A stretch of DNA of 64,000 nucleotides from Patescibacteria group bacterium (GTDB lineage: Bacteria; Patescibacteriota; Patescibacteriia; Magasanikbacterales; GWA2-37-8), in contig JBAZKA010000002.1 of NCBI GenBank assembly GCA_041651015.1, forward strand, positions 137,269-201,268, in the 5' to 3' direction. The position numbers and the translations under genes were made by a program. Shown here piece by piece: positions 4,064-61,320 of this stretch; position 1 is the stretch's first letter, and each line of letters begins with the position of its first letter. The notes under the pieces were generated by a model, which saw only the letters and a list, made by a program, of their open reading frames with translations, did no database searches and had not been told where the DNA came from.

Positions 4064-4075
4064 TCACTAAAACCC

Positions 4076-5741: not shown

Positions 5742-5897
5742 ACGGGCATTCACCGACTCTATAACAGTCTCCCTTGTACCATGACACACCTGTGACACTA
5801 ACAATATCTACACAGAAAAAACGCTATAACCTATTTGACAGAATAAAAACCTCTGGCCACGTTTGAGATGCTTCCCAAACAACCATAGGAGGGGGAA

Positions 5898-6215: not shown

Positions 6216-6271
6216 CTCCCGCCCGCGCCGCATCTCAGTTTTTCCACGATAATCATTTTTTAAAAAAAATC

Positions 6272-7558: not shown

Positions 7559-7641
7559 CGCGTTTCAAACGGCATTCCATGCAATGAAGACAAGATAAAA
7601 AATTTCTGTACATTCGATCAGGTCTGCATTATTTTTCGAAA

Positions 7642-9459: not shown

Positions 9460-9833
9460 GAGAGACCTGATAGAGACGTCAGAATCTGACTGATCAAGGG
9501 GCTCTACGGCTGTAATTCACGCCTGGGAATGAGTGCGAAACGCAGGCACAGGTCGCTGCCGCGTCAAAATCTTTTTTATAGCCACTTTCTCGGTATTCCA
9601 CAGCGAACGTTTCATGCCTGTGTCCCCGCCCCCTCTAACGTGGCTGGTAACCAATTCCGACCACGGCGCACGTCAGCCTGACCGCTGGCGCGGCGCGCAT
9701 CTCGCCTTCGAGGTCAGTCGATGCGAGGTGCTTAGAGGGGACGGGAGCATTCCCGCCCACCGTTCTTTTCACAACGTTCCTTCCCTGCCTGCCGGCAGGC
9801 AGGCACAACCCCAAACCCAAGGAGACAAAGAAG

Positions 9834-10049
9834 ATGGAAACGCACAGCACCGATCCGGAACGCGAGATCATCGACGGCTTCACCGCCGTCGAGATCAGGA
9901 ACATGGCCTTGGACAGCGTGGTCCAGGCCCGCTGCGACGACTGCGGCGCGATCCACGATGTGGAGCCCGACGCCGAGTCCTACGATTGCGCGAGCTGCGA
10001 CGCCAAGGGCTCGGTGAAGAGCCCGCTCGTCAAGCTCGGCCTCATCTGA
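9834..10049 (+). CDS. hypothetical zinc-ribbon protein
   Basis: aggaga RBS. Two CxxC pairs (CDDCG ... CASCD). Confidence 0.4.
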   Translation: METHSTDPEREIIDGFTAVEIRNMALDSVVQARCDDCGAIHDVEPDAESYDCASCDAKGSVKSPLVKLGLI

Positions 10050-10101
10050 CCGACGCGGACATCACCGCACTTCTACGGAGAAGAGAAAGGAGGAAACGAA
10101 A

Positions 10102-11358
10102 ATGACCGACTGGGTCGACTTCGCCGAGATCCGCGAAAGGGTTTCGCTCGAGCAGGTGCTCCTCGAGTTCTACGGACTCGACAACCTGCGCCGCGACAAC
10201 GCGAAGCTCATCGGGCCGTGCCCGGTGCACCTGGGCGACTCGAAACGAGCCTTTCACGCCGACCTCACGAAAAACGTCTGGCACTGCTTCACCGGCTGCC
10301 ACCGCGGCGGGAACCAGCTCGACCTCGTGGCGCTCAGGGAGGGGATCACCATCCGCGAGGCCGCGCTCAAGCTCAAGGCGTTCTTCCACCTCGACGAACG
10401 CGGCAGCACGGCTCGCTCTCAACAGGGCGCCGCCACCGCTCGCGCATCGCCGAAGGGATCATCTCCCTCTCAGTCATCCACTCCACCCCGTCGCTCCTCA
10501 TCCCGCACAGACACCGCCGCCCGACACGAACATCAGCGTGCATACGCCGAAAGCGATGGCGACGACTGCGATGCCGACGGAGAGGTCATCGCCGACGACG
10601 GCAACACCAACGCCACCGACGGTGCAACCGCGAGCTCAACCGCAGACACTGATCTTCCGATCAACCCGCCGCTCGACGTCGTCCTCAACCTGAAGGGAGA
10701 TCACCCGCATCTCGCAAAGGATCGCGGACTCGCTCCCGAGACGATCGCGCACTTCGGCGTCGGCTACTGCCACCGCGGCATCATGAGGGGTTGCATCGCC
10801 ATTCCGATCCACGACGAGATGAACAACCTCATCGCCTACGCCGGACGGCGCCTCAAGCCCCAGGACATCCGCGAGCTCGGCAAATACAAGCTGCCCAAGG
10901 GCTTCCGCAAGGATCGCGTCCTCTACAACCTCAATCGCGTGAAGGACGCGATGCCCGCCGAAGGCATCGTCCTCGTTGAGGGCTTCTTCACCGTGTTGAA
11001 GCTCCACGAGGCCGGCGTCCAGAATGCGGTCGCGGCCATGGGTTCGGAGCTGTCCGACGCTCAGGCGCAGCTCCTGATCGACACCCCCGGCGTGATCATC
11101 TTGTTCGACGGCGACAACGCCGGACGCCTCGGCGCGATAAACGCGAGAGACAAACTCACCGCGCTCGGCATCACTGTCCGCGTCGCGAATCTGCCCGAGA
11201 ACACGGAGCCGGACGATCTTTCACCCAAGGCGCTGCGCTGGCTCGTGAACGGCATGAAGTTGCTCGACATCGCCGAGGTCGGCTTCTCGTTCCGAGAACC
11301 GCGCGCCGGTGCAAGCGCAGACACCGTCACCGCATCGCCGAAAGAAATGGAGGAATGA
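10102..11358 (+). CDS. DNA primase (CHC2 zinc finger + TOPRIM)
   Basis: CHC2 zinc finger CPVHLGDSKRAFHADLTKNVWHCFTGC. TOPRIM segment VLVEGFFTVLKLHEAGVQNAVAAMGS...ILFDGDNAG. Low-complexity linker in the middle. Confidence 0.75.
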   Translation: MTDWVDFAEIRERVSLEQVLLEFYGLDNLRRDNAKLIGPCPVHLGDSKRAFHADLTKNVWHCFTGCHRGGNQLDLVALREGITIREAALKLKAFFHLDERGSTARSQQGAATARASPKGSSPSQSSTPPRRSSSRTDTAARHEHQRAYAESDGDDCDADGEVIADDGNTNATDGATASSTADTDLPINPPLDVVLNLKGDHPHLAKDRGLAPETIAHFGVGYCHRGIMRGCIAIPIHDEMNNLIAYAGRRLKPQDIRELGKYKLPKGFRKDRVLYNLNRVKDAMPAEGIVLVEGFFTVLKLHEAGVQNAVAAMGSELSDAQAQLLIDTPGVIILFDGDNAGRLGAINARDKLTALGITVRVANLPENTEPDDLSPKALRWLVNGMKLLDIAEVGFSFREPRAGASADTVTASPKEMEE

Positions 11359-11951: not shown

Positions 11952-12608
11952 ATGGCTCGTCATCATCATGGCGGCGAGCGCCGTCAGCTCGCCGACCGGC
12001 TCCTCCTTACAGGAGCCGAGTTCTTGTCCGAGGCCGAGCTTCTCGGCCTCGCCCTGCACCACACCGCGCTCGGTCACGCGCTTGCCTCGCAGACAACAAA
12101 CTGGTCCGAGGCCGATCGCACTCTCATTGGCCGTGTGCCCGGGCTGTCAACGGATCGCCTCGCCTCGCTCTATGCGATGAGTGAACTGGCGAAACGGTTC
12201 GCGGTACGTCCGCTCTATCTCAGTCAGTCCCTCCATTGCAGCGAGGCCGTGGTGAATGTCTATCGGCCCAAGCTCGCCCTGATCAAGCAGGAGGTGTTCG
12301 TGGCGATCTCGCTCAACAACCGGAACTGCGTGGTCGCCGAGCACACCATCGCCAAGGGCTCGCTCGATTCGGTCAACGTCCATCCGCGCGAGGTGTTCCG
12401 TCCGCTCCTGCGCGACGCGGCCGCCCGCGCCATTGCACTGCACAACCACCCGTCCGGAGATCCGACGCCGAGCGAGAACGATATCTCAATGTGCCGCCGC
12501 CTCCACGAGGTCGGCAAGCTCGTCGGCATCCCGCTCCTGGATTTCCTGATCGTGGCCCACGAAGGCTCGGTCTCGTTCCGCGACATCGGGCTCATGCCCG
12601 CGTCGTGA
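11952..12608 (+). CDS. radC: RadC-like JAB/MPN domain protein
   Basis: JAMM motif HNHPSGDPTPSENDI. Confidence 0.8.
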   Translation: MARHHHGGERRQLADRLLLTGAEFLSEAELLGLALHHTALGHALASQTTNWSEADRTLIGRVPGLSTDRLASLYAMSELAKRFAVRPLYLSQSLHCSEAVVNVYRPKLALIKQEVFVAISLNNRNCVVAEHTIAKGSLDSVNVHPREVFRPLLRDAAARAIALHNHPSGDPTPSENDISMCRRLHEVGKLVGIPLLDFLIVAHEGSVSFRDIGLMPAS

Positions 12609-12790: not shown

Positions 12791-13015
12791 ATGCCGAAGA
12801 ACAACAGCAGAAACAGCGAAGAGAAGAAGACGCACCTCAACGTGTTCACGCCCGTGGAGAAGAAGGACTCTAAAACGTTCTGGCTCCGCGTCGGCTCGGC
12901 CTTCACCAACAAGGACGGGAGCATCAACGTGTACCTGGATGCTGTGCCCTTGAACGGCAAGCTCCAGCTCCGCGAGCCGAACCCCAACCCGGATGAGCGC
13001 GACGATGACCGGTGA
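12791..13015 (+). CDS. DUF736-like protein (ICE-associated)
   Basis: FWLRVGSAFTNKDGSINVYLDAVPLNGKLQLRE matches the DUF736 pattern seen in integrative conjugative elements. Confidence 0.5.
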   Translation: MPKNNSRNSEEKKTHLNVFTPVEKKDSKTFWLRVGSAFTNKDGSINVYLDAVPLNGKLQLREPNPNPDERDDDR

Positions 13016-13748
13016 CAAAGAAGAAAACACCGGCCTACCGGACGGTGTGAACACCCCGATCGACGAGCGGATGTCTGTCCGTCTCATTGAAGCACTCACC
13101 GCGGTCTGGTCCAAGATCCGTAAACATCATCCCGATGTTCCCGGTGTCGTCATCCTCGCCGCGCCGTCACTGCGAAAGCAGCTCAACGTCCTCGGCCACT
13201 TCGCCGCGCTCCGCTGGAGCGCGCGAAAGAAGGGTGATCAGCACTTCCACGAGGTCGTGGTTGTGGCCGAGCACCTCGACCGCACAGCCGAGGAGATCGT
13301 CGGAACTATCGTTCACGAGGCCGCACACGCTATGAACTTCGAGCGACAGATCTTCGACTGCTCACGGAGCCAGTACCACAACCAGCGGTTCAAAGACGCT
13401 GCCGAGGAGCTCGGGCTCGAGGTGGACCAGGTACCGCACTACGGCTTCGCGAAGACAAGGATGACCGAGAAGACGATCGCGCTCTACGCGAACGAAATCG
13501 CAGGGCTCAACGACGCCCTCGTCCACCGGAGAAAACCGATCATCATCGCGAAACCCGCGCCGCCAAAGGATGGCACGCGCGACGGACCGGGTGACGAAAA
13601 CGACAACGCCGACGACACGCCCGCCTCGCGTCACCTCAAAGCCGTCTGCTCCTGCGACCCGCCGTTCATTATCCGAGTTTCCAGAAAAACCCTCGCCGAG
13701 ACGCGCATCATCTGCGCGCGATGCGGGGAGGAGTTTGGGGTCGTCTAG
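12993..13748 (+). CDS. SprT-like zinc metallopeptidase with C-terminal zinc ribbon
   Basis: HEAAHAM (HExxH) plus C-terminal CSCDPP...CARCGEEF ribbon. Confidence 0.55.
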   Translation: MSATMTGDKEENTGLPDGVNTPIDERMSVRLIEALTAVWSKIRKHHPDVPGVVILAAPSLRKQLNVLGHFAALRWSARKKGDQHFHEVVVVAEHLDRTAEEIVGTIVHEAAHAMNFERQIFDCSRSQYHNQRFKDAAEELGLEVDQVPHYGFAKTRMTEKTIALYANEIAGLNDALVHRRKPIIIAKPAPPKDGTRDGPGDENDNADDTPASRHLKAVCSCDPPFIIRVSRKTLAETRIICARCGEEFGVV

Positions 13749-13759
13749 TCGTTCTTTGT

Positions 13760-13786
13760 AGCCCGCCAAAAATGGCGGGCTTTGTA
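13760..13786 (+). terminator. hairpin after SprT-like gene, at the boundary of the low-GC islet
   Basis: Stem agcccgcc/ggcgggct with a weak T-run. Confidence 0.4.
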
Positions 13787-13871
13787 TGTCACACCTGTAC
13801 CCCTTGACACTTTTTTATTTTTCATATTTTATTTCTATTCTATTTCGGTTTTTCCAAACAGGAGGTACATT

Positions 13872-16718
13872 TTGTCGTTTGATTTTCAAACAATAGTTTC
13901 CGACATTTTAGAAAAACAATCTCTTGTTAGTTCTCCTTACCACAAAGCTTATCACGCATATATTGTAAATTGGCTAACAAACAGATATAAAGACAAATAT
14001 CCATATGTTACGCTTGTTGGTGTCGGTGGAACCGGTGTAGTTCTCGGCTTCTCTGACACCAGTTCTTCTCCTTTGAAATGTATTAAATACCCTGTTTCTT
14101 CATTTGGCACGACTGGCAATTTTACTCCAGGGCACGTCATCGAAACAGAAGCAAATCGTCTTACACAATTAAGTCATCAGAATATTTTACACGTTGACGA
14201 AGTAGGTAGTGTTCCTGTTGTTGATAATAGTGATGATTTCTCTCTAATCGACAACGAGGGCGAGAAGATCCCTTTCTTTGTAATGCCCTTCATACCCTGT
14301 AAAAATCTTGCTGATTTTCTTAAAGAAGATAGACCTATCGACCAAATCGTTTTGCTTACCATTCTCGCCCAAATTGCGGAAGCACTTGATTACGTACATC
14401 ATCACCATTTAATTCATCTCGATATCAAACCTGAAAACATTTTTGTTGATTTCACTTCTCCTGAGATTATTAACGCCAAACTCGCTGATTTTGGTTCGTG
14501 CAAAGAAATTTCTGTTGGTTCCACTTCCAAATCCATTGTCCTTTGCACAGATGGATATATACATCCAGATCTTTTAAACATTATTAAACAAGGGAACGAT
14601 AGCGATGCAAGACGTTTTCGCAATAAAGTTCCTAAAAGCATTTTTGATTCGAGATTTGATCGCTATTCTTTCGGAGCAACGATTTTGGATTCTGTTTACT
14701 TGTTTCTATCCAACAGTGTAGGAAGATCCGTCTCTCCCTATATGCTTCGTGCACTTCAGTTTATTTCTTTGAAGTGCGCCGATGGTTATGCAAATCACAT
14801 GGCAACACATCCTCGTCGCAAATATCTCGCACCTCCTGATCTTTATAACGATTTACTTTCAAAGAAAGTATCCTATGCTAGCACTACAGAAGTTCTCCGC
14901 GACATTCAAGCCGTTATCTCCAATGGGGATGGTTTCACAGAGCAGGAACTTCTTGATAGTTCCCAGGGAATCGTTTGTTTACCACCACGGTCTTTTGCGC
15001 CGTTCCCAGATAGAGTGCAACAGACTGTCGATTCCACGCCCGTTCGTCGCCTTTCAAGTATTTCACAGTTGGCTCTTGTATATCATGTATATCCAGGCGC
15101 TTCTTACACAAGAAAAGAACATACAATAGGTGTTTTTGCGACAGCCGCAGTTCTTTTGCGCCACATCATTAAAGATAGCAGAAATCCACTCGGCGTGCTA
15201 CTGCTTACACTAAAATGGCAGAGAGCTATACTGTTAAGCTCTCTCTGGCACGATATATCACATATTCCCTTAATGCATGAATTCGAAGATTCGATACCAG
15301 AATTGAGTCAAGGGTACTATTTTGCAAAAATTATGGAAAAGGACTTTGGTTCATTGGCTTTTCAAAAGGAAATTGATACTATTTTGGCTCTATGGAATCT
15401 TACCAGAATTGATGTTGTTTTGGTTCTCGGCAAAAAAAAGAACTTCGATTATCGTAAATGGAATCTTGACGAAGCCCAATGGGATTTTTTATGGGAACTT
15501 CCCGAAAGGCAGCTTTCTGCAAGTATTCTAAACAGTGCTGTTGATGCAGACAAAATGGATTATCTTCAAAGAGACGCTTTACATGTAGGTGTTCAATATG
15601 GTCACACAGTAGATCTTGAGAGGCTTTTCCGCAGAGCAACAGTCGCACTTACAGTGAATACAAATAAAAGGGATGGAACCACGATTACTTCCTTTAAATG
15701 CAGTTTAGGCTTCTGGAGTACAGGTGCAGCAGCTGCAGAAGCTGTAATTGAAGCACGACACAACATGTTCAATCAGGTTTATGCACATAGAACAGTTCGT
15801 GCTTCCAGGGCTATGCTGAATTATATTGCATGGAATTGGCGTTGTAGTATTGAGGAAGGAAAGACATATCGCCCTAATAGTTTGTTTGTAAGAGGTAGCT
15901 CTTTGTGCCCTAGCGGAAGCATCCTATCGCAGATGAGAAAACAGACTCAAAAGCAAATGCAAATGGATGAAATTGGTTCCACTGCCTTTGCTGAAAATAG
16001 AACACTGAATGTTTCCGAAAAACGTTTTGAAGATAAGCTGCGTGATAATTTGCCATATTTGGAATCGTCACTGATAAGATGGTTGGCGGCGCAATCCGGG
16101 AAAGACGAAGCGGTATTAATGGCCGAGTCGTTGATACAAAGAGAATTGTATAAGGAATTATTTGTAATAAAAATTGCGAAAGTTCAACAGTTGTTTGATG
16201 CAATATACTCAACAAAAAAGGACACCGAGAATGAATCAAAGTATGAAATGAACTTTCGGTGCAATAATTGGTTAGGGCTTATTGATTTCATAGAAGCAAA
16301 ACTTAAGGAATACATACAAAATGAAGAAAAAAACAAAAGCGTGGCTATATCAATGGAGCAACTAGAGAAATCGAAGTTGCCTTGTTTATTGGTTGATTTT
16401 GCGTTGCCTAAAACAATGCGTGGGCAACCTATACTATACCTGGTGAGCGAAGAAATGAGATCTGGTGTTGGTTGGGAAAAAGTTAGAAAACAAAATCCAA
16501 GCGGTGGAAAAGAAACTTTATCTGGCATGATCGTTGAGAAGTCGAGAATTTATGAGTTGTTCGGGGGAGGGGTATCGGAAAGCAAGTGGTTAACACCTGT
16601 GATTAGAGTATTCGCGTCGAAAGAGATAGCAAATGTATTACGCAGACATCTTCACGAAGAAACAGTAATCGAATGGCTAAATAGATATTTACAGGATGGA
16701 AGAGCTGTCGTGGAATAA
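13872..16718 (+). CDS. Hanks-type Ser/Thr protein kinase fused to dGTPase/SAMHD1-like HD domain
   Basis: Kinase motifs GVGGTGVV (Gly loop), HLDIKPENIF (catalytic loop), KLADFGS (DFG). C-terminal HD motifs H...LWHDISH and VDADKMDYLQRDALHVGV (dGTPase/SAMHD1 signature). aggagg RBS then TTG at 13872. The ORF is open from 13782. GC is ~38% inside a 65% GC region. Confidence 0.6.
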   Translation: MSFDFQTIVSDILEKQSLVSSPYHKAYHAYIVNWLTNRYKDKYPYVTLVGVGGTGVVLGFSDTSSSPLKCIKYPVSSFGTTGNFTPGHVIETEANRLTQLSHQNILHVDEVGSVPVVDNSDDFSLIDNEGEKIPFFVMPFIPCKNLADFLKEDRPIDQIVLLTILAQIAEALDYVHHHHLIHLDIKPENIFVDFTSPEIINAKLADFGSCKEISVGSTSKSIVLCTDGYIHPDLLNIIKQGNDSDARRFRNKVPKSIFDSRFDRYSFGATILDSVYLFLSNSVGRSVSPYMLRALQFISLKCADGYANHMATHPRRKYLAPPDLYNDLLSKKVSYASTTEVLRDIQAVISNGDGFTEQELLDSSQGIVCLPPRSFAPFPDRVQQTVDSTPVRRLSSISQLALVYHVYPGASYTRKEHTIGVFATAAVLLRHIIKDSRNPLGVLLLTLKWQRAILLSSLWHDISHIPLMHEFEDSIPELSQGYYFAKIMEKDFGSLAFQKEIDTILALWNLTRIDVVLVLGKKKNFDYRKWNLDEAQWDFLWELPERQLSASILNSAVDADKMDYLQRDALHVGVQYGHTVDLERLFRRATVALTVNTNKRDGTTITSFKCSLGFWSTGAAAAEAVIEARHNMFNQVYAHRTVRASRAMLNYIAWNWRCSIEEGKTYRPNSLFVRGSSLCPSGSILSQMRKQTQKQMQMDEIGSTAFAENRTLNVSEKRFEDKLRDNLPYLESSLIRWLAAQSGKDEAVLMAESLIQRELYKELFVIKIAKVQQLFDAIYSTKKDTENESKYEMNFRCNNWLGLIDFIEAKLKEYIQNEEKNKSVAISMEQLEKSKLPCLLVDFALPKTMRGQPILYLVSEEMRSGVGWEKVRKQNPSGGKETLSGMIVEKSRIYELFGGGVSESKWLTPVIRVFASKEIANVLRRHLHEETVIEWLNRYLQDGRAVVE

Positions 16719-19069: not shown

Positions 19070-22402
<3,333 letters not shown>

Positions 22403-22579
22403 CTTCTCTTCCTCCCCGAGCCGCGCCTCAGGCGCACGAGCGTTCACGGTGTTTCCGCACGGCCCGCTGTTGTCCCATCTCTCAAGGCGCACTCCCGCCG
22501 CCGATGCCGGGACCATCCAGGGGCACCGGCGGACGGGACGTGCGAGGACCCCCGCGTTCAAAGCGGCCGATGCCGCCGA

Positions 22580-29684: not shown

Positions 29685-31349
29685 ATGCATATCCATCAAT
29701 ATATTACAAATGGATATATCGCATTATTGTTGATTGTTTTAAATGCCTGTCAAGGCGTTCAACAAAACTACGGCCCGCATGACACCGAGACCAATGCGGA
29801 CGCGGCGCCGGACACCGACACTGATGCAGATGCCGACAGCGATGCGGACAGTGAATCCGAGACCGTCGATACGGACTTCACGAGCGAGGCGATCCCGACG
29901 ACGTGCGCCGAGGCGGCGGAGCAGCAGACGTCTGTTGGGTGCGAATTCTTCGCGGCGGATTTGGACAACGCCTCTCAGAACGACCACATGACCTACGCCA
30001 TCGTGGTCTCCAATCCGCAGGAAGTGCAAAGCGCCCAGATCACTCTATGGGACGGCACCGAGAGCGCCATCTACACGGCGACGCTGGCGCCCGGCGAGCT
30101 CCATGTCATCGACGTTGCGTGCGATTTGGGCTGTCTGGTGCCACCGCACGAAATCGACAAGCAGGGATTCTCTCGAGGGGCCGGTTTTCGCCTCGCCTCC
30201 GACGTCCCGATTCTCGTCTATCAATGGAATACCTACGGCATCGATGAGGCCAGCGTAGATGCCTCACTACTTTTACCGACCGTCAGCTTGGGCAGAAGCT
30301 ACATCGTCGCGGCGTGGGGACAGGGCAATAGCATCAACATGCCGACCAGTGTCTCCCAGGTCACAGTCGTCGCCATCGAGGACGATACGCACGTCTCGTT
30401 TATCCCCTCGACGGACGTTCCGGATTTCGGCGACGCGGGGCCGTACGGGGCGGGTGTGGAGACGGAGCCGGTGAGGCTCGACGCGTTCGACATAATCGCG
30501 CTCGGCCCAGCGATCTTGGATGATGACGTCACAGGCACCGTCGTTCGGTCGGATAAGCCGGTAGTCGTGTTCGGCGGGCACGCGTGCGCCACAGTGCCCG
30601 ATGTGTACTATCAGGCCTGCGATCACCTGGAGGAACAACTCTTCCCGTTGTCAGCGTGGGGAACGAGCTCTGTATTGGCGCGGCACGCTCCGCGCCAGAA
30701 CTGCATGTACGAGGATCTGGTCGTCTGGCGGGTCATTGCGGGTGCGGACGACATGGCCGTGACGTTCGACCCGCCGGCGCCCGATCCCGCGGGGAGCGCG
30801 TACTACTTTGAAAAGCAAGGTGACGTGCTCGAGTTCATGGCGTCGGACAACTATTACGCCGAGGGCCTGTTCGAGAGCCCCGCGGACCCGACCGAGCCCG
30901 AGGCACCGTTCCTCGCGTATCAGTTGATGACGGGCGCCGACTACCCTGACTGCTTCCTCAACGAAACGAGGAGGGAAGGCGACCCGATGATGCTCCAGGC
31001 CGCGCCGGCCTGGCAGTACTTGGACAGGTACGTGTTCAACACGGACAACGTGTTCGACTTCGCCTATGACCGCATCACCATTGTGAGACCCACGGGTGCG
31101 CACGTGGTGCTGGACTGCCTGGGGCTCATCCCGGACTCGCAGTTCACGGCGGTCGGCTCGAGCGGTTGGGAGGTCGCCTACGTCGTCATCGACGATCCCG
31201 ACAACACGACCGGTTGCGAGGACGGTGCGCACGTCCTCACGGCTTCGGCCCCCGTGGGCCTGTCCGTCGTGGGAACTGGCGATGGCGTGTCATACGGCTA
31301 TATGGGCGGCACGGGCGTGGCGCCGATCAACCCGGTGGTGGTGGAATAG
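29685..31349 (+). CDS. secreted lipoprotein, unknown function
   Basis: Lipobox LLLIVLNAC. Acidic D/T/S linker. 554 aa with no recognised catalytic motif. Confidence 0.5.
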   Translation: MHIHQYITNGYIALLLIVLNACQGVQQNYGPHDTETNADAAPDTDTDADADSDADSESETVDTDFTSEAIPTTCAEAAEQQTSVGCEFFAADLDNASQNDHMTYAIVVSNPQEVQSAQITLWDGTESAIYTATLAPGELHVIDVACDLGCLVPPHEIDKQGFSRGAGFRLASDVPILVYQWNTYGIDEASVDASLLLPTVSLGRSYIVAAWGQGNSINMPTSVSQVTVVAIEDDTHVSFIPSTDVPDFGDAGPYGAGVETEPVRLDAFDIIALGPAILDDDVTGTVVRSDKPVVVFGGHACATVPDVYYQACDHLEEQLFPLSAWGTSSVLARHAPRQNCMYEDLVVWRVIAGADDMAVTFDPPAPDPAGSAYYFEKQGDVLEFMASDNYYAEGLFESPADPTEPEAPFLAYQLMTGADYPDCFLNETRREGDPMMLQAAPAWQYLDRYVFNTDNVFDFAYDRITIVRPTGAHVVLDCLGLIPDSQFTAVGSSGWEVAYVVIDDPDNTTGCEDGAHVLTASAPVGLSVVGTGDGVSYGYMGGTGVAPINPVVVE

Positions 31350-38127: not shown

Positions 38128-39369
38128 TTAGACACTCACCACGCCTTCCGTTGCCGTACTGTTGCCGTAAACACGCGCCCCGTTGCCATCCAAGACGGCA
38201 ACGGCGTCGGTCACCGATTCCGGTGACAGGTGCGCGTAGCGGAGCGTCATCTGCATGGTGGCGTGCCCGAGTTGTTCCTGAATCGTCTTGAGCGGCACGC
38301 CGCGCATCGCGAGATGCGAGGCGTAGGTGTGCCGCAGAACGTGCCAGCCGATCTCGCGCACGTTCGCGAGCTCGCAAACATGCCGCAGCGCCCAATCCGA
38401 GCTGTTCGAAGAAATCGCCGAGCCGTCTGCTGTTGAAAACACGAGCTGTGCGCCGATCGTGCGACGCGCCGCGAGCGCGCTGTCCGTTGTGTCGTTCACG
38501 GTGCCGCCATCCTCGTACGCCCGCCGCCGTTCATTTTCACGCGCGGCTCGCTTGCACTGTTCGATCACGGCAACGGTTGCCGGCGTGAGGTACACGGTGC
38601 GCACCTTGTTGTTCTTCGGCGAACCGATGATGCCCTTGGCCACGGCGCGCGAGATGCGCAGATACGGCGATCGTCCCTTGAGCTGGACATCGCCCCACCT
38701 GAGTTCGAACAGCTCCCCGCGCCTGAGTCCGGTGCGCATGGCGACGAAGAACGGCGCGTGCCACAGCGGCGCTTTCGCGGCTGCGGTCGCGAGAAGCCGC
38801 TCCGCCTCCTCGAACGAGAGGTAGTCGAACGACGGTGGTGGGCACTTTGGAAAACGGCAGCGCGGCGCGCGCTCGAGATGTCCGACTTCGGTGGCGTACC
38901 ACAAGAGCCGCGACAAGACGGCGAGCGCGTTCTTCACGGTCTTGGGCGAGAGCCCCGAGGCGAGCAGGTCTTTCTTCATCTTGTCGATGTCGAGCGTGTT
39001 GATCTCATCGAGCCGCTTCAATCCCATGGCCGGCAGGATGTAGAGCCGGAGCATCGATTGTTTGGAGGTCACCTCGGACGGCTTGTTCTCGGTCTTCGCG
39101 TACAACTCGATGAACACTTTTGAGAACGCTTCGACCGTCGGCATTTCTTCTTGTTCTTCCGCTCCTTTCTCGCGGTACGTGCCGTCGCTGAGCGCCCGGA
39201 AAATCGCGCGCTCCTCGGCCTCGGCTTCGCGCCGAGTCGTGCCTTGAGCGACGCGCCGAATGCGTTCGCGGCGGCCGTCCGCGTGTCTGTATGCAAAGTC
39301 GATCAAAAGAATCTCCCGCACCGTGCCGGTCTTTTTGTCGGTGCGATTTTCGCGTCTCACGCTCATCAC
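38128..39369 (-). CDS. tyrosine recombinase / phage-type integrase
   Basis: C-terminal catalytic region HVLRHTYASHLAMRGVPLKTIQEQLGHATMQMTLRYAHL (R..H..R..Y). N-terminal SAM-like domain. Confidence 0.85.
   Translation of the reverse strand: MMSVRRENRTDKKTGTVREILLIDFAYRHADGRRERIRRVAQGTTRREAEAEERAIFRALSDGTYREKGAEEQEEMPTVEAFSKVFIELYAKTENKPSEVTSKQSMLRLYILPAMGLKRLDEINTLDIDKMKKDLLASGLSPKTVKNALAVLSRLLWYATEVGHLERAPRCRFPKCPPPSFDYLSFEEAERLLATAAAKAPLWHAPFFVAMRTGLRRGELFELRWGDVQLKGRSPYLRISRAVAKGIIGSPKNNKVRTVYLTPATVAVIEQCKRAARENERRRAYEDGGTVNDTTDSALAARRTIGAQLVFSTADGSAISSNSSDWALRHVCELANVREIGWHVLRHTYASHLAMRGVPLKTIQEQLGHATMQMTLRYAHLSPESVTDAVAVLDGNGARVYGNSTATEGVVSV
38146..38168. repeat. 23-bp direct repeat copy 2
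   Basis: See copy 1. Overlaps the last ~8 codons of the integrase. Confidence 0.5.
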
Positions 39370-39752
39370 TCACCTCTGCGATGAACGGGACGCGGCTTTG
39401 CCGCGAACCAAGATATCACAGATGGGCGGTGCACGCGGAAGGTTCGCCCGCAACGACGCACTCCGGGCAAGTCCCCGCGGCGGATCATCGCGTAGACGGT
39501 CTTGCGATCGAGTCGCAAATATTCGGCGGTCTCTTCAATCGACAGAAATTCGAAGCGCGCGAAACAGTCGTCTTTTTCGATGTCATCGCCGGAGTCGGGG
39601 ATGCTGCGCGATGTCCGCAGAATGTCTCCGTCATCGCCCGCCCGCCCACTCGTTGCGCGCTTCTCGGCGGAAACGGCGTCCGCGACGATCCCGTTCGCGC
39701 CGTCGGTGTCGGCGTTGAAACGGGGGCTACTCGGAGGTTCGGATCGATCCAT
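39366..39752 (-). CDS. excisionase-like HTH DNA-binding protein
   Basis: C-terminal LSIEETAEYLRLDRKTVYAMIRRGDLPGVRRCGRTFRV (Xis/MerR-type HTH). Overlaps the integrase start by 4 nt. Confidence 0.6.
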   Translation of the reverse strand: MDRSEPPSSPRFNADTDGANGIVADAVSAEKRATSGRAGDDGDILRTSRSIPDSGDDIEKDDCFARFEFLSIEETAEYLRLDRKTVYAMIRRGDLPGVRRCGRTFRVHRPSVISWFAAKPRPVHRRGE

Positions 39753-39764
39753 GTTCCTTTCCTT

Positions 39765-40676
39765 TCAACCTCGCCCTGTCCTGGCAGAGCCTCGTCTATC
39801 CACCCGTCTATCCGCGGCGAGGCGCGTCTTTGGAAACCCGCGCCGTTCGCGGTTCCGCGCGATCGCGGTGGCGGGTGTATTAGGGCCTCTGGCCCGTCCC
39901 CCCGCCGCGCCGCCTACCTCGGTCGGTTCCCGCACCGGTCGCGCGTTGACCTCGTCCACGAGGAACACGCGGCCGAACTCCTCGAGCCCGTGCGACGCGA
40001 GCGACTCCGTGATTGTCGTTCGTCGCGCTTCGCTCAGCACCACGAACCACAGGGCGTCGATGACGCCGTGCTCGGCCGCGCCGAGATACCTCGCCAGCTT
40101 GTCGCCGATCACAGACTTCACCGGCTCGGTGCCGCAGTCCGCTTCGACCGCGACGAAGACCGCGCCCTCCGGTGTTGCGAACTCGGCCAGGCCGTCCGGC
40201 TCGATGTGCCAGTCCGCGAGCCCGATCTCGGCCGCGAGCGCGCCGCCGGCGTTGGCCCAGCGGACGAGAGGCGATCCTCGTTTCTCTCCGAGCGCGGCCG
40301 CGTAGAGCCTGGCATCCACCACCATGAGCCGATGCGTGAGAGTCGACATCTGGATCGGGCCGGCGAGCCGCAATCGTCCTTCCAGATCCGGACGCGTGCT
40401 CTCGGCGAGCCGCAGTCCGCGCTTGGTCAGCGAAACGAGATTGGGGCTGTTCGCGCCGGTAACGGCCACGTTGATAAACCCCGCATCAAACAAACGGCGC
40501 AATCGCCGACGGGCGCGATCTTCGCTCGGGAAGAGCGCACGCGCCGCTTGCGATGTGGACATCGCGCCGCACAAACCGACGAGCGTGAGCACGTCGATGT
40601 CTCTCTCCTGAATCTCAAATCGCGACGAGACTCGGACGCGGCCCGTGCGCGAGGGCTTGGGTGAGCGCGCGGTCAT
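39765..40676 (-). CDS. replication-relaxation family protein (second copy)
   Basis: N-terminal ERDIDVLTLVGLCGAMSTSQAARALFPSED..RARRRLRRLFDAGFI, similar in pattern to 4824..5741. Confidence 0.45.
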   Translation of the reverse strand: MTARSPKPSRTGRVRVSSRFEIQERDIDVLTLVGLCGAMSTSQAARALFPSEDRARRRLRRLFDAGFINVAVTGANSPNLVSLTKRGLRLAESTRPDLEGRLRLAGPIQMSTLTHRLMVVDARLYAAALGEKRGSPLVRWANAGGALAAEIGLADWHIEPDGLAEFATPEGAVFVAVEADCGTEPVKSVIGDKLARYLGAAEHGVIDALWFVVLSEARRTTITESLASHGLEEFGRVFLVDEVNARPVREPTEVGGAAGGRARGPNTPATAIARNRERRGFPKTRLAADRRVDRRGSARTGRG

Positions 40677-41032
40677 ATGTGGATCCTGAACGGGTTGAGC
40701 ACACTGAGGCCGCAGACCGGGCAGTTCACGTAGGGCGCGATCGGCGCCCTACATTCCGGGTTTTCGCATTTCAGGATGGACGAGTTTTCGTAGGTGTAGC
40801 CGCACGAGGTGCACTCGTACACCTGACCGACGAGCGAAAAGACATGACCGCGAGGGCAAGTGACGACACCGCCGCGAATGGCGCTTCGCGCTCCCCACAG
40901 CCCGACGATGAGCTTGAAGACAAAACGCAGACCACTGAGCAACCAGAACGCGATCTCTGTCATCGTAACGACGACATTCGCGGCCAGGGTGACGAGAAAC
41001 TTCACGATGTTGAAAACGTTCTTCATGGTCAA
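40673..41032 (-). CDS. membrane protein with C-terminal zinc ribbon
   Basis: Two TM helices then CPRGH...CTSCG...CENPEC...CPVCG. Confidence 0.4.
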   Translation of the reverse strand: MTMKNVFNIVKFLVTLAANVVVTMTEIAFWLLSGLRFVFKLIVGLWGARSAIRGGVVTCPRGHVFSLVGQVYECTSCGYTYENSSILKCENPECRAPIAPYVNCPVCGLSVLNPFRIHI

Positions 41033-42609
41033 CCCCAGCGCGAACGCGGACGCGAAGCCGCGCTCGGCGCGTTGTCCGGCGCGTTCGTTTCGGCGCTCGC
41101 CGCGTTCGCATTCTGTTGTTCAGCGAATGTCGGCGAGGTTGGTCTCGACTGTCGCGGACGGCCGCGACATTTCCCTCTGCCCGAACGCGGCTCCTCGCCA
41201 AACGCTTCGGCGAGAGTCACGCGGCGAGATGTGGACGGCGGGAGCGCCAGGCGCGACTTGGCCGCGGTGATCTCGTCCTCGTGCTCGCCCGTGGCGCGAT
41301 GCAGCGCTTCCATATCCACGTCGGCCGAGTGGAAACGTTGAAGCGCGCCGGGCACGATGCGGAAGAACGCCCGATCTTCCAAATTGCACACGGCCGCCGC
41401 GAAACGGGAGCGAACGGCGCCGATGGTCTCATCCGTGCCGGACTTGGGCGCGCGCTCGCGGCTGAGCATTTCCGCGTCAGGCGCGGATAGACGCCCAACG
41501 ATTTTGAGCGTCGTATTCGTCAAAAGAACATCGAGCAAATTCGGGGCGGCTTTGTGCAAGAGCACGGTGCCTTGGGTGATGGCCGTGAGTGACATCCCGC
41601 GGCTTCTGCCCGTGGTGAGAATGGCTTCGGCACTGTCCGAGAGCGCATTGGCCACGAGCTGGGCTTCGTCGACAACCACACGGACGTGATGTCCGCTCCA
41701 CGGACTCGGACGCGAAAGCAAGTGGTCGATGACCACTCGGCACAGGAGGTTTGAGAAAAAATCTCTGAGCGAACTCATTCCACCCGACGGTGAGCCCAAG
41801 TCGATGAGCGTGAGAGCGCCGGGGCGTGTGAGATCGTCCAGAGAGATGCACGAAGCGGTGCTCATCATCCGCTCGAGCGGCTCGGTCATAGAGAAGGAGG
41901 TTCGCAACCGACTGGCACAGGACGAACGGAGCTCGTCTGAGAGTTGTGCAGACAAGAGGAACTGCTGGGCGCGTTCGGACGAGGTGGCGCGCGCCAGGGA
42001 CTTGAGTCCCTGTTTCTGCGTGAGCGCGTCGAGCGTCCAGATCGGATTCGCCGCCGGGTGATCCGATGCCAAGGTGCTGAGCAACAGATGCGCGAGGACG
42101 TCGAGCTGTCGAGCGCCAGTTCCCAGATGCTTGATCCCACCCGCGGCAGTGGAGACGTTGTTCACGAGCTCGGCGATCTGCATTGCCCGGATGCCGAGCG
42201 TCGAGTCTCGTCCGAGTTCGAGCCGGCAGAGGTTGAACGGGAAGCCCGTGCCCGAGAAGGGGTTCAGGTAGTTGATGTCACGGAGCCGCTTGGGAGCGAT
42301 GTGCGCGATTGCGGAGACGAGCGCGGCCACGATATCTCCCTTTGGGTCGATAACCGCGTAGGCGGTGGAGTCGGACGAGGCGATCTCGGCGGCGAACGCG
42401 GCGGCGCACATCAGGCTCTTGCCCGAGCCGCTCGCGCCGAGCACCAGCGAGCTTGCCGAGTGTTCGAGCGTAGGACGCGGCCAGAGGACGGATGAGCCGT
42501 CCTCGGCCTGTCCGATGATGACTCCGTCATCCGGCGACGCAGGCTGGGTGCCGCGCGCCGCCGAATGACGCGGTTTGCCGAACAACATCTTGGTGAAATC
42601 CAGGATCAT
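41029..42609 (-). CDS. VirD4/TraG-like P-loop ATPase (second copy)
   Basis: Walker A LGASGSGKS, DPKGD motif, Walker B VVVDEAQ. Confidence 0.55.
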   Translation of the reverse strand: MILDFTKMLFGKPRHSAARGTQPASPDDGVIIGQAEDGSSVLWPRPTLEHSASSLVLGASGSGKSLMCAAAFAAEIASSDSTAYAVIDPKGDIVAALVSAIAHIAPKRLRDINYLNPFSGTGFPFNLCRLELGRDSTLGIRAMQIAELVNNVSTAAGGIKHLGTGARQLDVLAHLLLSTLASDHPAANPIWTLDALTQKQGLKSLARATSSERAQQFLLSAQLSDELRSSCASRLRTSFSMTEPLERMMSTASCISLDDLTRPGALTLIDLGSPSGGMSSLRDFFSNLLCRVVIDHLLSRPSPWSGHHVRVVVDEAQLVANALSDSAEAILTTGRSRGMSLTAITQGTVLLHKAAPNLLDVLLTNTTLKIVGRLSAPDAEMLSRERAPKSGTDETIGAVRSRFAAAVCNLEDRAFFRIVPGALQRFHSADVDMEALHRATGEHEDEITAAKSRLALPPSTSRRVTLAEAFGEEPRSGRGKCRGRPRQSRPTSPTFAEQQNANAASAETNAPDNAPSAASRPRSRWG

Positions 42610-44876: not shown

Positions 44877-45590
44877 CTATGCGGTTTGCCTGAAAACAGA
44901 ATTGCAGACATTGCACGTGGCATCGAAGTAGACGCTGCGCGCGATATAGATTCTGGTGCCACATTTGCAATGCCAGCATTTGCGACTCTTCTGTTTGGAG
45001 ATAACTGTCTCGGTCTCGTCCTTTTCGAAGCAGCCCCGAGTGCCGTTCAAATTGTTCTGCTGCGCCCAATCCAAGAACGGACTCGGATCAACGACAAGGC
45101 TTTCGACTTTCGCGGCTCCCCAGCGGTTGCAGGGAATTCCGATTGCGTCCAACGCCTTACGCATGCTCGAAGAGTGATAATTGTTCACGGAACTTGGCGC
45201 GGTGTCTGTGATTTCTTCTAGAGCATGGAACATTTCGTGGAGCAAAATGGCCGCAATTTGGATTTCGGAATGCTTATGGAAATAGCCGGGATTGATACCG
45301 ATCTCAAAGCGATTGCCATATCCGTTGCGGTTGCAATGATAGTGGCCGAGCCACCTGCTATGCACTTCTTTAAATGTGAATACGAAGTCCGGGCGGGACG
45401 TCGGGCGATATTTCCATTCTCTCGGTATAAAACATTCCCAGAGAGAGACCGACCACTGACGCATTTTCTTTGAAATTTCCGAGTAGTGCCAATCTGACAG
45501 ACTATCCTGAAAGTTTCCGAGAGATTGGTTCATCTCCGCATCGGTGATGTTGGGCTGCACGACCAACACTTCTGCTGTTTGCCTTGTCAT
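44877..45590 (-). CDS. SprT-like metallopeptidase with zinc ribbon (second copy)
   Basis: HEMFHAL plus CWHCKCG...CNVCNS. Confidence 0.5.
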   Translation of the reverse strand: MTRQTAEVLVVQPNITDAEMNQSLGNFQDSLSDWHYSEISKKMRQWSVSLWECFIPREWKYRPTSRPDFVFTFKEVHSRWLGHYHCNRNGYGNRFEIGINPGYFHKHSEIQIAAILLHEMFHALEEITDTAPSSVNNYHSSSMRKALDAIGIPCNRWGAAKVESLVVDPSPFLDWAQQNNLNGTRGCFEKDETETVISKQKSRKCWHCKCGTRIYIARSVYFDATCNVCNSVFRQTA

Positions 45591-48802: not shown

Positions 48803-49086
48803 TAGATAAGATATCCGTTTCTGCCCCTCCCCACTCCAGAACTGAGGAGTACAATATCCGGATATGCAAAAAATATTCAAGAATTGTCGGCCCGAATATA
48901 GTAAAACCAGCGAACAAACAGAAAAAAAAATTCCGGTATTTGCCGAAGAAGAAATAAAAAACATCCTCGAATTTCTAGGGTGTCTTAAAGATATCTCGGA
49001 AGGACTTTTACGCAAGGGTTATACTCTCGCAGACGGGGTATTCATTCAGCCAAATAACAACAATAAGTCAGTAAATTCATTTCCAT

Positions 49087-50718
49087 ATGAGGACAACCGA
49101 ACTCGTTAAAACCGCACATGAATATCTCATCTATGCTCGTAAAAGCACTGATGACCAAGAGCATCAGAAGAACTCTATCGAATACCAGGTGATGCACTGC
49201 CGGAAGTTCGCCGCCGACCTTGGCCTGCGGATAGCCGATTACGCTGAAGACGATTTTTGTGACAACGGCATCGTTCAAGAGAGTCATACGGCGTTCAAAA
49301 CCTCCGGGTTGGAGATCTCACCAGATGGCTCGATACAGTACAATATCGACCGGCCTCGCTTTCAAAGACTTGTCGCGCTTCTGGCCTCTGGAAAATTCAA
49401 AGGAGTGATCTGCCTTTGCTGGGATCGCCTGTCTCGAAATCCGCACGACGATGCGGTTGCGAAATATCTTCATGATCGCGGCGTCGACATCCGATTTGTT
49501 CTCGCTACATACGACAACTCCAGTTCTGGCGCCCTTCACATGGCCATCGATGGTGTATTCGCCTCTTTCTATTCGCGCAATGTCTCCGAAAAGGTGACCT
49601 TGGCAATTGCTAAGCTGCGCCTCGAAGGAAAGCGCCTCGGCAAAGCGCCAATCGGATATTTAAACAGAGGGTCTGGGAACAAGCCGCTCGACCCTGCGCG
49701 TGCTCCTGTGGTCAAGAAGCTCTTTGAGCTCTACGCCACCGGTGAGTGGAGCATCGCCCAATTGGCGCAGTGGGCGAAGAAGCAAGGACTCACCAGCCAG
49801 GGTAAGCTCAGAAAGAAAAAATCGCCCGAAGGAGAAAAGGCTCATCCTGTTCTCCCGAGAACGATTGAGTTGCTACTACACAACCCGTTCTATGCCGGCT
49901 TTCTCCGCCACGACGGCGTTGAGTACCCTGGCGCTCACGAGCCGCTCATTTCTAGAGAGCTCTTTGATCATGTTCAACTCGTCCACAGAAAGCGCACGAC
50001 CTCTGTCCATTACGCCGAGGAACTGCCCTTCTGTTATCGCGGCCTGATCCGCTGCTCTTGCGGTCGGAGCTATTCCCCCTATCTTCAGAAGACTTATGTC
50101 TACTACGGCGCACGTTGTCGCGGCGCCTGCGGTAATCCGACACGGAATCTCTCCGAGCAGAAAATAGACGCGGTTTTCCAAAAATTGCTCGGCCGCCTTC
50201 ATTTTTCCGAAGAAGAAACGGCTTGTATAAAAGAAAATGCGCCGCAGTTTTTCGCTGAAGCGAACACGAAGAGAAATGAAACAGGACTGATCTACGAAAA
50301 ACAGCGCAACCGACTGATGCGTGATCTTCAGTATCTTGAAGACAATAAAATAGACCTGCTCAGAGAGCGTGCATTCACGCCAAATGAGATTTCAAAAGAA
50401 ATGGCACAATTGCGTGTCGAACTTGGGAGTCTAAAAACAAAAGCCACGACTTTAATCGAGGTAGATGAGCAGACAAAATTAGAGACAGTCCTGAATTTTT
50501 CCGAACTCATTATTTCCGCCAAGTCTGCATTAGAAAACGCCGATAGTCAGAAAAAGCGACACTTGTTCACAACCCTGTTTTCCGAACTGGTTTTGGACAA
50601 CGGAATTGTCGCTAGTTACAGCGCAAAACCGGGTATTGAAAAGTTGCTGAAAAGACCTCTTGCGAAACTCAGTGCCCTTGGAGGGAGTCGAACCCCCGTT
50701 ACTAGATTCGAAGTCTAG
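49087..50718 (+). CDS. large serine recombinase
   Basis: Resolvase-type N-terminus YLIYARKSTDDQEHQKNSIEYQ (catalytic Ser), recombinase domain, Cys-rich zinc ribbon (CSCGRSY...CRGACG), coiled-coil. The last ~15 codons are tRNA-Arg sequence. Confidence 0.8.
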   Translation: MRTTELVKTAHEYLIYARKSTDDQEHQKNSIEYQVMHCRKFAADLGLRIADYAEDDFCDNGIVQESHTAFKTSGLEISPDGSIQYNIDRPRFQRLVALLASGKFKGVICLCWDRLSRNPHDDAVAKYLHDRGVDIRFVLATYDNSSSGALHMAIDGVFASFYSRNVSEKVTLAIAKLRLEGKRLGKAPIGYLNRGSGNKPLDPARAPVVKKLFELYATGEWSIAQLAQWAKKQGLTSQGKLRKKKSPEGEKAHPVLPRTIELLLHNPFYAGFLRHDGVEYPGAHEPLISRELFDHVQLVHRKRTTSVHYAEELPFCYRGLIRCSCGRSYSPYLQKTYVYYGARCRGACGNPTRNLSEQKIDAVFQKLLGRLHFSEEETACIKENAPQFFAEANTKRNETGLIYEKQRNRLMRDLQYLEDNKIDLLRERAFTPNEISKEMAQLRVELGSLKTKATTLIEVDEQTKLETVLNFSELIISAKSALENADSQKKRHLFTTLFSELVLDNGIVASYSAKPGIEKLLKRPLAKLSALGGSRTPVTRFEV

Positions 50719-50744
50719 TGTCCTATCCGCTGAACGACAAGGGC
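50673..50744 (-). tRNA. tRNA-Arg (anticodon TCG)
   Basis: Manual cloverleaf: acceptor GCCCTTG/CAAGGGC, anticodon loop CTTCGAA, T-arm GGGGG-TTCGACT-CCCTC. Confidence 0.7.
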
Positions 50745-50772: not shown

Positions 50773-50844
50773 TGGGTCGCCAGGGATTCGGACCCTGGAC
50801 CTTGTCCTTAAGAGGGACCTGCTCTACCAACTGAGCTAGCGACC
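50773..50844 (-). tRNA. tRNA-Lys (anticodon CTT), atypical T-loop
   Basis: Acceptor GGGTCGC/GCGACCC, D-arm GCTCAGTTGGTAGAGC, anticodon loop CTCTTAA. T-loop reads TCCGAAT (C at position 55). Confidence 0.55.
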
Positions 50845-50845
50845 C

Positions 50846-50886
50846 CCTCACCCAGAAATTTTTTGAAAAAAATTTCTGGGTGAGGG
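50846..50886. terminator. perfect 17-bp-arm palindromic hairpin
   Basis: cctcacccagaaatttt-ttgaaa-aaaatttctgggtgagg. Confidence 0.6.
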
Positions 50887-50930
50887 GGCGACCCGTTGCA
50901 TTTCTGCATGAGTCGCCTTGTAAGTAAATT

Positions 50931-61238: not shown

Positions 61239-61320
61239 TGCCCGAGGAGAGAATCGAACTCTCATGACCGAAGCCGCACGATTTTGAGTCGTGTTCGTCT
61301 ACCAATTCCGACACCCGGGC
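61239..61320 (-). tRNA. tRNA-Leu (anticodon CAA)
   Basis: Acceptor GCCCGGG/CTCGGGC, anticodon loop CTCAAAA, long variable arm CGGCTTCGGTC, T-arm GAGAG-TTCGATT-CTCTC. Confidence 0.7.

Follow-up and report, generated by a model that had tools for sequence, protein, structure and literature searches.

Why should the gene of a large serine recombinase (LSR) end inside a tRNA gene on the opposite strand? This question is raised by a stretch of 64,000 nucleotides (the window; positions 137,269 to 201,268 of contig JBAZKA010000002.1) from a Patescibacteria metagenome-assembled genome (MAG; NCBI proteins MFA5127777 onward), in which the open reading frame (ORF) of a 543-aa serine recombinase terminates within tRNA-Arg(TCG). 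An earlier examination of the sequence (the original prediction) had noticed this overlap and had taken it for the attachment junction of an integrated element. The anatomy of the locus indicates that the overlap is very probably the right attachment site (attR) of a 48.85-kb element placed at the 3' end of tRNA-Arg(TCG) by its own LSR. The main point, which is absent from the original prediction, is that the crossover appears to fall inside the recombinase gene itself. The features on which this reading rests are as follows:

836-1816, minus strand: host metallophosphoesterase gene, left flank (Pfam Metallophos)
1817-1826, plus strand: putative attL core AGTGCCCTTG, in direct repeat with that of attR
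1826-1918, plus strand: stranded recombinase 3' end, 30 codons EFVFSEIDELYKMAKTTIPELGEAVNSIEM, stop at 1916-1918, in frame with the core
1827-50680, no strand: integrated element, ~48.85 kb between the cores
48864-49109, plus strand: 81-aa ORF overlapping the recombinase start, with a homologue in 127 of 150 loci
49087-50718, plus strand: LSR gene in its integrated form, 543 aa (531 native and 12 tRNA-antisense residues)
50671-50680, plus strand: putative attR core AGTGCCCTTG, recombinase codons S529-A-L and complement of tRNA-Arg 66-73 plus 2 nt of 3' trailer
50673-50744, minus strand: tRNA-Arg(TCG), intact, the putative integration target (Rfam; ARAGORN gives 50672-50744)
50773-50845, minus strand: host tRNA-Lys(CTT), same-strand upstream neighbour of tRNA-Arg (ARAGORN, Rfam)

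The attachment cores and the divided recombinase gene

That the recombinase ORF ends inside tRNA-Arg was confirmed. The cloverleaf of the tRNA at 50673-50744 passed the covariance model with 64.5 bits (Rfam tRNA RF00005; gathering score 29), and the recombinase stop codon (TAG, 50716-50718) coincides with tRNA-Arg positions 27-29, in the 5' strand of the anticodon stem. The overlap amounts to 46-47 nt and supplies 12 antisense-encoded residues (GGSRTPVTRFEV) to the 543-aa protein, whose C-terminal end reads ...LSALGGSRTPVTRFEV or, over a longer stretch, ...KLSALGGSRTPVTRFEV.

The view of the overlap as an attachment junction was also borne out, in that it contains a 10-bp core, AGTGCCCTTG, which recurs as a direct repeat at 1817-1826, 48,854 bp away. 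On the tRNA strand the right-hand core comprises tRNA-Arg positions 66-73 (CAAGGGCA) and 2 nt of trailer. Of the 10-mers taken from the junction, three occur again in the window, and only AGTGCCCTTG at 1817 is then followed by an in-frame tail motif; there the left core reads SAL and continues in frame as EFVFSEIDELYKMAK...IEM*. Only this core, with the last 8 nt of the tRNA in it, is common to the element and tRNA-Arg. A second copy of the tRNA-Arg 3' half, full or partial, was found neither at 2.9-3.1 kb, where the original prediction had expected the distal attachment site, nor elsewhere in the window (25-nt and 23-nt pieces, up to 3 mismatches); the distal site instead lies at 1817-1826. 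Nor was the idea supported, as it had been worded, that sequence from the attachment site of the element (attP) rebuilds the tRNA, the 47 nt read by the ORF being host DNA; the tRNA stays intact because the core restores its last nucleotides.

The region at 2.9-3.1 kb was considered as a distal site and rejected. It shares an 8-mer, TCGAACCC, with the T-arm, but, by inspection, a crossover there would leave the T-stem unpaired and would end the recombinase as ...SRTHLSTT*, without the conserved tail described below. A general repeat finder run on the window returned mostly coding repeats.

The C-termini of the 120 best relatives of the recombinase, nearly all of them from metagenomes and MAGs, were of two kinds, which diverge after a conserved ...AKxGFxALLxR.... 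One kind carries a conserved tail, xDY(V/L)FSELxxIY... or xxWLSEL..., and the other ends in peptides such as GIRTHDQLVNSQLRYRCAT, GNRTPI and GTRTRN, which are the antisense of a tRNA T-arm and acceptor stem. A six-frame motif search of the window, prompted by these tails, found ...HSALEFVFSEIDELYKMAKTTIPELGEAVNSIEM* at 1817-1915 (+). Additionally, a profile that drew on the tails of intact homologues alone ranked the fragment at 1826-1915 first among 2372 six-frame fragments of the window, with 11 bits (E 0.05), 5 bits over the next match. This fragment lacks a start codon of its own, and the window holds only one serine recombinase gene. Since the 30 in-frame codons after the left core match the conserved C-terminal tail of those homologues that do not abut a tRNA, attP very probably lies inside the recombinase gene.

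Joining 49087-50680 to 1827-1918 gave a 561-aa protein that aligns end to end with 46 intact homologues (510-624 aa) and that regains E537, a nearly invariant residue (at least 90% conserved) in this comparison. In the restored gene of 561 codons the core runs from codon 529 through codon 531 and takes in the first base of codon 532. Whether homologues share a conserved C-terminus that ends before 50673, a finding that could have told against the original prediction, thus has a divided answer: conservation of the integrated gene does stop early, at about 50680, which is the crossover, and the remainder of the conserved C-terminus is found at 1826-1915. The reconstructed attP reads ...GCGAAACTCAGTGCCCTTGAGTTCGTATTT... 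with the junction CTCTTGCGAAACTCAGTGCCCTTGAGTTCGTATTTTCCGAAATTG, and the reconstructed host site (attB) reads ...AAAATTCATAGTGCCCTTGGAGGGAGTCGAA... with the junction GAGGAGAAAATTCATAGTGCCCTTGGAGGGAGTCGAACCCCCG.

Taken together, these observations indicate that attP very probably lies within the recombinase gene, 30 codons short of its stop and with Ser-Ala-Leu as the core codons, and that recombination with the tRNA end (attB) therefore splits the gene. The integrated copy reads into the tRNA antisense strand and encodes 543 aa, while the conserved 30-residue tail, predicted to form two helices, is left at the far end of the element (1826-1915) and is replaced by 12 arbitrary residues; excision would rejoin both parts into the 561-aa gene. 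By what is established for serine integrases, the recombinase would cut at a central dinucleotide of the core, for which TT, as the best dyad centre in attP, is weakly favoured. Such an enzyme would not depend on long homology, in keeping with cores of only 5-10 bp. The original prediction had also named the serine recombinase as the enzyme responsible, and this is supported by the halves of its gene forming both ends of the insertion.

Empty sites, the recombinase and its family

Uninterrupted tRNA-Arg loci were found in two relatives, L085 (JGI 3300035208) and L086 (SRR27370451), whose RNase III is at least 90% identical to that of the window. In both, the gene order is L32, NusB, RNase III, tRNA-Lys, tRNA-Arg(TCG), 8-27 nt, and the metallophosphatase ATG. 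In the window the metallophosphatase ATG (1816-1814) abuts the attL core and the tRNAs and RNase III lie beyond the right core, such that removal of 1827-50680 gives the organisation of L085 and L086; by this comparison of sequences, the 48.85 kb between the cores is an insertion that L085 and L086 lack. A separate Logan assembly covers the left junction together with the rise in G+C from 40% to 60% at ~3.1 kb, and the left junction is therefore not an artefact of one assembler. In L002, whose recombinase is 89% identical, tRNA-Arg is likewise occupied and the order RNase III, tRNA-Lys, tRNA-Arg is also kept, with cargo that is largely different.

The 543-aa protein matched Pfam Resolvase (PF00239, 2.3e-19) and Recombinase (PF07508, 2.9e-14, residues 203-299) as well as the PHROG 95 integrase family (5e-68). 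Residues R18, S20 (in RKSTDD), R89 and R114/R117 are invariant in 50 homologues, as are the zinc-ribbon cysteines C323, C325, C344 and C348 among recombinase homologues. An AlphaFold2 model contains long helices at 375-457 and, in the tail, helices at 529-536 and 538-560, where the mean predicted local distance difference test score over 10-residue blocks is 83-93. The top Foldseek matches of this model were the full-length SPbeta, Bxb1 and phiC31 integrases (E 1e-14 to 5e-11), with A118 also matched. Judged by its domains, invariant residues and modelled fold, the protein is an LSR.

Two collections, species-representative genomes and metagenome contigs, were scanned with the recombinase-family alignment. 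The genome set comprised 82 loci (80 from species-representative genomes, L002 and the window), and the metagenome set 80 contig loci, 71 of them with a complete gene end. The recombinase ORF ends inside an opposite-strand tRNA at 47 of the 82 genome-set loci and at 47 of the 71 metagenome gene ends (94 of 153 in total), and the overlap is therefore not due to chance. The target tRNAs are those for Glu, Asn, Asp, Arg, Leu, Gln, Trp, Ile, Ala, Lys, Ser, Val and His; further Trp and Leu targets have in-frame stops, and 14 amino-acid specificities were counted over both sets. All organism-labelled tRNA-ending loci of the genome set carry Patescibacteria or MAG-bin labels save L079 (Verrucomicrobiota), and the organism-labelled intact-tail genes of that set belong to Bacteroidota and Alphaproteobacteria, with L051 labelled only 'uncultured bacterium'. 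The intact-tail and split kinds interleave in distance clustering.

Stranded tails lie upstream on the same strand at no fewer than 25 loci. At nine of them (L010, L019, L029, L033, L034, L036, L040, L061 and L070) the stranded tail and the recombinase gene are linked in frame through a short core. These cores are 5-9 nt long and start at most 3 nt from the tRNA 3' end, except in L040, where a repeat of 38 nt begins 31 nt upstream and extends 7 nt into the tRNA. The elements at the nine loci span 2.7-10.4 kb. That of L061 (2.67 kb) consists of the recombinase and two small ORFs only, and no tyrosine integrase was found in the L033 and L040 elements; small elements that lack another recombinase thus point to the serine recombinase as the integrase.

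Furthermore, a close relative of a split gene was found in the unsplit state. In L161 the recombinase ORF ends in tRNA-Glu, beside Mur ligase and penicillin-binding protein genes. The DNA of L176 and L152 is 86-89% identical to that of L161 up to ...TTTGTGACCC(C/T)AC (...GTGACCCYAC) and then diverges, such that L176 and L152 continue as AWLSELLKLG... and L161 as GNRTLL.... The intact gene of L152 is followed by the genes of an element, encoding MazF, a type IV coupling protein, Replic_Relax and a DnaG-like primase, and thus the unsplit form exists. The trio of Replic_Relax, coupling protein and primase is also the set found at 4476-11358 in the window.

A small ORF (~50-90 aa) stands directly upstream of the recombinase, whose start it overlaps, in the same 127 of 150 family loci, in the intact-tail and split kinds alike (elsewhere than in the window, for example, at L161:934-1137, L040:8902-9096 and L094:9627-9803). 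It carries the motif (F/L)(S/T)xE(T/A)IxxLxELGxVLxxIHxRLxxEGYxIxDGKI and matched no Pfam or PHROG family. It is a candidate directionality or accessory factor.

Tandem or remnant arrangements were also seen in the family. At L003:4219-5800 and L019:811-2252 the 'stranded' tail is immediately preceded by another, divergent recombinase gene, which would be expected had a second element entered the attR of a first. An extra tail fragment occurs 0.8-3.6 kb downstream of an intact-tail gene at L073:9747-10070, L117:6737-6925 and L125:15304-15462. In addition, the element with the intact-tail homologue P0004 (L091:1274-5132) carries genes for an OLD-family ATPase/TOPRIM protein and a UvrD-like helicase, a pair that is Gabija-like defence cargo.

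The cargo of the element and its host flanks

The remaining genes assigned within the element are as follows:

3178-3564, plus strand: helix-turn-helix (HTH) regulator (Pfam)
4476-5741, plus strand: Replic_Relax (Pfam)
6272-7558, plus strand: type IV coupling protein (Pfam)
7642-8172, plus strand: M78 peptidase (Pfam)
8173-9459, plus strand: NUDIX-domain protein (Pfam)
10102-11358, plus strand: DnaG-like primase (Pfam)
11952-12608, plus strand: RadC
12993-13748, plus strand, and 44877-45590, minus strand: two SprT-like genes
13782-16718, plus strand: Ser/Thr kinase, 978 aa
19070-22561, minus strand, and 29685-31349, plus strand: large immunoglobulin-like (Ig-like) surface proteins
38128-39369, minus strand: tyrosine integrase (Pfam)
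39765-40676, minus strand: second Replic_Relax (Pfam)
41029-42609, minus strand: TraG/VirD4-like coupling ATPase (Pfam)

The genes from the HTH regulator to the primase (3178-11358, +) are the backbone module of the element. Those at 38128-42609 (-) constitute a second mobility module, opposite in orientation to the module at 4476-7558 (+). Blocks of ~60% and ~40% G+C alternate across 3150-45000, with host flanks at 42-48%, and this mosaic, together with the second mobility module and the tyrosine integrase, suggests nested or composite elements. No phage structural genes were present among the element genes, and relatives of the recombinase family were absent from IMG/VR viral contigs, the latter result therefore lending no support to a phage. 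Searches of plasmid and phage databases returned distant matches only, at up to 38% identity for the coupling protein and up to 26% for the recombinase. Its gene content suggests a plasmid-like element, integrative and either mobilisable or conjugative, into which further modules have come.

The SprT-like gene at 12993-13748 has 89% DNA identity to L002:5000-5552, in an otherwise different element, which indicates module exchange between elements at the same tRNA-Arg site. The product of ORF 19070-22561 (-) has 1163 aa with Ig-like and MopE-type metal-binding motifs. Within this ORF, positions 19156-19519 consist of degenerate 6-nt-periodic repeats (GTC/GGA/GTC...) that encode an Asp/Ser/Thr-rich low-complexity stretch, and related 87-nt repeats were found at 19497, 19866 and 20241.

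On the host side, only 2 nt separate the metallophosphatase ATG from the 3' end of tRNA-Arg when the empty site is reconstructed, and before integration the gene was therefore probably expressed by read-through from the tRNA operon. Its upstream neighbour after integration is the DUF6602 gene of the element (2059-2883, -), which reads outward toward it. A 45-nt near-perfect palindrome (CCCCTCACCCAGAAATTTTTT...AAAAAATTTCTGGGTGAGGGG) at 50846-50890, between RNase III and tRNA-Lys, is missing from the corresponding spacer in L085 and L086; it may act as a terminator in both directions or represent a small inserted repeat. Additionally, tRNA-Leu(CAA) at 61239-61320 (-) was missed by the whole-window Rfam scan at the gathering threshold and scored 51.7 bits when its region was searched alone; the miss is a filter effect, and the tRNA is not defective.

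The exchanged tail and known integration systems

Several observations weigh against reading the overlap as the attR of an element moved by its own LSR. The element also encodes a tyrosine integrase, and its G+C content is a 40%/60% mosaic, such that part of the 48.85 kb may be secondary insertions. The tail-profile match (E 0.05) is weak when taken alone and becomes convincing only with the core, the reading frame and the recurrence in the family. Dyad symmetry at the core is modest in attP (11/22, centred on TT) and weak in attB. Furthermore, neither an excised circle nor an attP junction was seen: a scan of JGI metagenome contigs with a degenerate pattern covering attL, attR, attP and attB gave 0 matches, and there is therefore no direct evidence of an excised circle or of the exact empty site, while a terminal-repeat test detected no circular contigs among the 80 metagenome loci.

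If integration exchanges the tail as outlined, the excised and integrated forms of the enzyme would differ in activity or stability, by analogy with IntP and IntX of phage Mx8. Such a functional switch is a tentative proposal. In its favour, the tail is conserved in intact and stranded copies alike, and in the phiC31 integrase the very end of the C-terminus contributes to the surface to which the directionality factor binds (bioRxiv 10.1101/2025.05.02.651858). On the other hand, the replacement tails are arbitrary, and the conserved small upstream ORF offers a conventional directionality or accessory factor. The ends of the tails also bear on this point. Of 44 intact recombinase tails, 9 end in -AA (P0006, P0053, P0056, P0057, P0072, P0081, P0084, P0111 and P0117; e.g., ...ALAA, ...PRAA, ...KLAA) where ~0.15 would be expected from composition, and P0090 and the stranded tail of L019 end likewise. 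None of 50 tRNA-encoded tails ends in -AA, and the stranded tail of the window itself ends ...NSIEM. These endings resemble ssrA-like C-terminal degradation tags, and their excess hints at a functional C-terminus.

A wider proposal is possible, although doubtful: that the family represents a widespread LSR clade on small plasmid-like Patescibacteria elements, specialised on the 3' ends of tRNAs of at least 14 amino-acid specificities, with attP in the recombinase's own gene and two isoforms whose swap would be a built-in switch of activity, directionality or stability. If true, the full-length form would come only from the excised circle and the tail-swapped form only from the integrated copy, and serine recombinases would thereby have their own equivalent of Mx8 IntP/IntX and of integration-dependent immunity.

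It is quite possible, though we would not call it probable, that the tail swap is instead a neutral by-product of where attP lies, both forms being equal and a separate factor setting directionality. This would be consistent with tRNA-encoded replacement tails that vary freely in length and sequence among loci and with a small partner ORF, possibly encoding a directionality factor, before the recombinase in 127 of 150 loci. It is harder to reconcile with the conservation of the tail in intact and stranded copies, with its confidently modelled helices, with -AA endings in 9 of 44 intact tails against ~0.15 expected, and with the tyrosine-integrase precedent of Mx8, in which the equivalent change alters integrase specificity (PMC6070905).

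A 'suicidal' integration, in which loss of the tail would inactivate the recombinase and leave the element locked in and decaying, seems unlikely. Integration does split the gene here, as it does in suicidal integrases of the SSV type (PMC8371274), and tandem arrays and remnant tails exist, but the loss concerns only 30 of 561 residues and leaves the catalytic, recombinase, zinc-ribbon and coiled-coil parts intact. Moreover, stranded tails are open, in frame and conserved at many loci, and a close relative is known in the unsplit state (L176/L152 vs L161).

Very improbable is an island inserted by the tyrosine integrase at 38128-39369, with the serine recombinase as cargo at its end. That enzyme is encoded inside the element, and tyrosine enzymes are behind almost all known integrations at tRNA genes (PMC4383910, PMC7192596); nevertheless, the insertion has one half of the serine recombinase gene at each of its ends, the two being joined in frame by the core, no more than 10 nt of the tRNA is found displaced, and the same architecture recurs in small elements without a tyrosine integrase. 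The gene of this tyrosine integrase, the only one in the island, lies ~11 kb from the nearest end, in a high-G+C block, and on this anatomy we rejected it as the enzyme responsible. A chance run-on of the ORF into the tRNA or an assembly chimera, unrelated to integration, has a negligible probability despite the frequency of short gene overlaps in compact genomes and the striking G+C mosaic of the window, given an overlap that recurs in 94 related loci, an empty site in relatives and a second assembly that spans the left junction and the 40% to 60% G+C step.

With the LSR as the probable integrase of its own element, the use of tRNA genes is itself of note, as these are regarded as targets of tyrosine integrases and here a whole serine clade appears to use them systematically, on mobile elements of the Candidate Phyla Radiation (Patescibacteria) that are poorly known. 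In surveys, the use of tRNA genes by serine integrases is described as unknown or as rare and unproven (PMC4383910, PMC7192596); the TIGER paper placed 14 of 297 elements at t(m)RNA genes and asked that this be proven by experiment (PMC7192596), and the word tRNA is absent from a large survey of LSR attachment sites. Like the tDNA islands recognised by the Islander signature, the element has an intact tRNA gene at its boundary and a tRNA-proximal integrase gene. Unlike them, it has a repeat of 10 bp only in place of a displaced tDNA fragment, and the enzyme near its end is a serine and not a tyrosine recombinase. Islander, whose stated design demands both a tyrosine integrase and a displaced tDNA fragment, would not report such islands; island finders that look for either of these features should miss such elements by design, and gene callers will give integrated recombinases spurious tRNA-derived C-termini. 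A detection rule that combines a short core at a tRNA 3' end with a stranded FSEL/WLSEL tail upstream on the same strand would correct both.

Among LSRs, the protein shares with the SPbeta, Bxb1, phiC31, A118/LI and TP901-1 enzymes its fold and the order of its domains (resolvase, recombinase, and a zinc ribbon with a coiled-coil insert), as well as short putative attachment sites without long homology. It is at most 26% identical to phage integrases, and its family further has an extra subdomain after the coiled coil and the exchangeable tail. An attachment site inside the recombinase gene would yield two state-specific isoforms of a serine integrase and, if the tail matters, a control of directionality or expression without, or beside, a separate directionality factor; as serine integrases are widely used genome-engineering tools, control by isoforms is of interest.

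The attB sites of Myxococcus phage Mx8 overlap tRNA-Asp genes. Its attP lies in the integrase coding sequence, and the prophage integrase acquires a different C-terminus and an altered specificity (PMC6070905). The recombinase of the window resembles the intP/intX system in having attP within the integrase gene and in gaining a recombinant gene with a new 3' end upon integration, whereas Mx8 employs a phage tyrosine recombinase and the present case an LSR on plasmid-like elements with a shared core of just 5-10 bp. The SSV-type 'suicidal' integrases of archaeal viruses and plasmids, which are of the tyrosine family and described as exclusive to archaea, also have the att site within the integrase gene, and it has been suggested that their suicidal integration serves to control directionality (PMC8371274). 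Their split parts are large portions of the enzyme, in contrast to the present exchange of a 30-aa tail, which leaves the catalytic and DNA-binding domains together. With attP apparently in its own gene but a serine and not a tyrosine recombinase as its product, the system therefore works like the Mx8 and SSV types but is not a member of either. In mycobacteriophage BPs, attP lies in the repressor gene, and an ssrA-like degradation tag stands at the C-terminus of the free form (PMC4557955). Integration-dependent immunity of this kind, which occurs in BPs and relatives, is similar in that the integrated and free forms encode different C-termini, and dissimilar in that the split gene is a repressor and the recombinase a tyrosine integrase, and in that the tail in the window ends ...NSIEM rather than -AA. 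A non-exhaustive literature search turned up no account of a serine integrase that is divided by an att site of its own, although an earlier description may exist. What appears to be new, as judged from sequence, is the serine-recombinase version, at tRNA 3' ends, of an 'attP inside int' design already known for tyrosine integrases.

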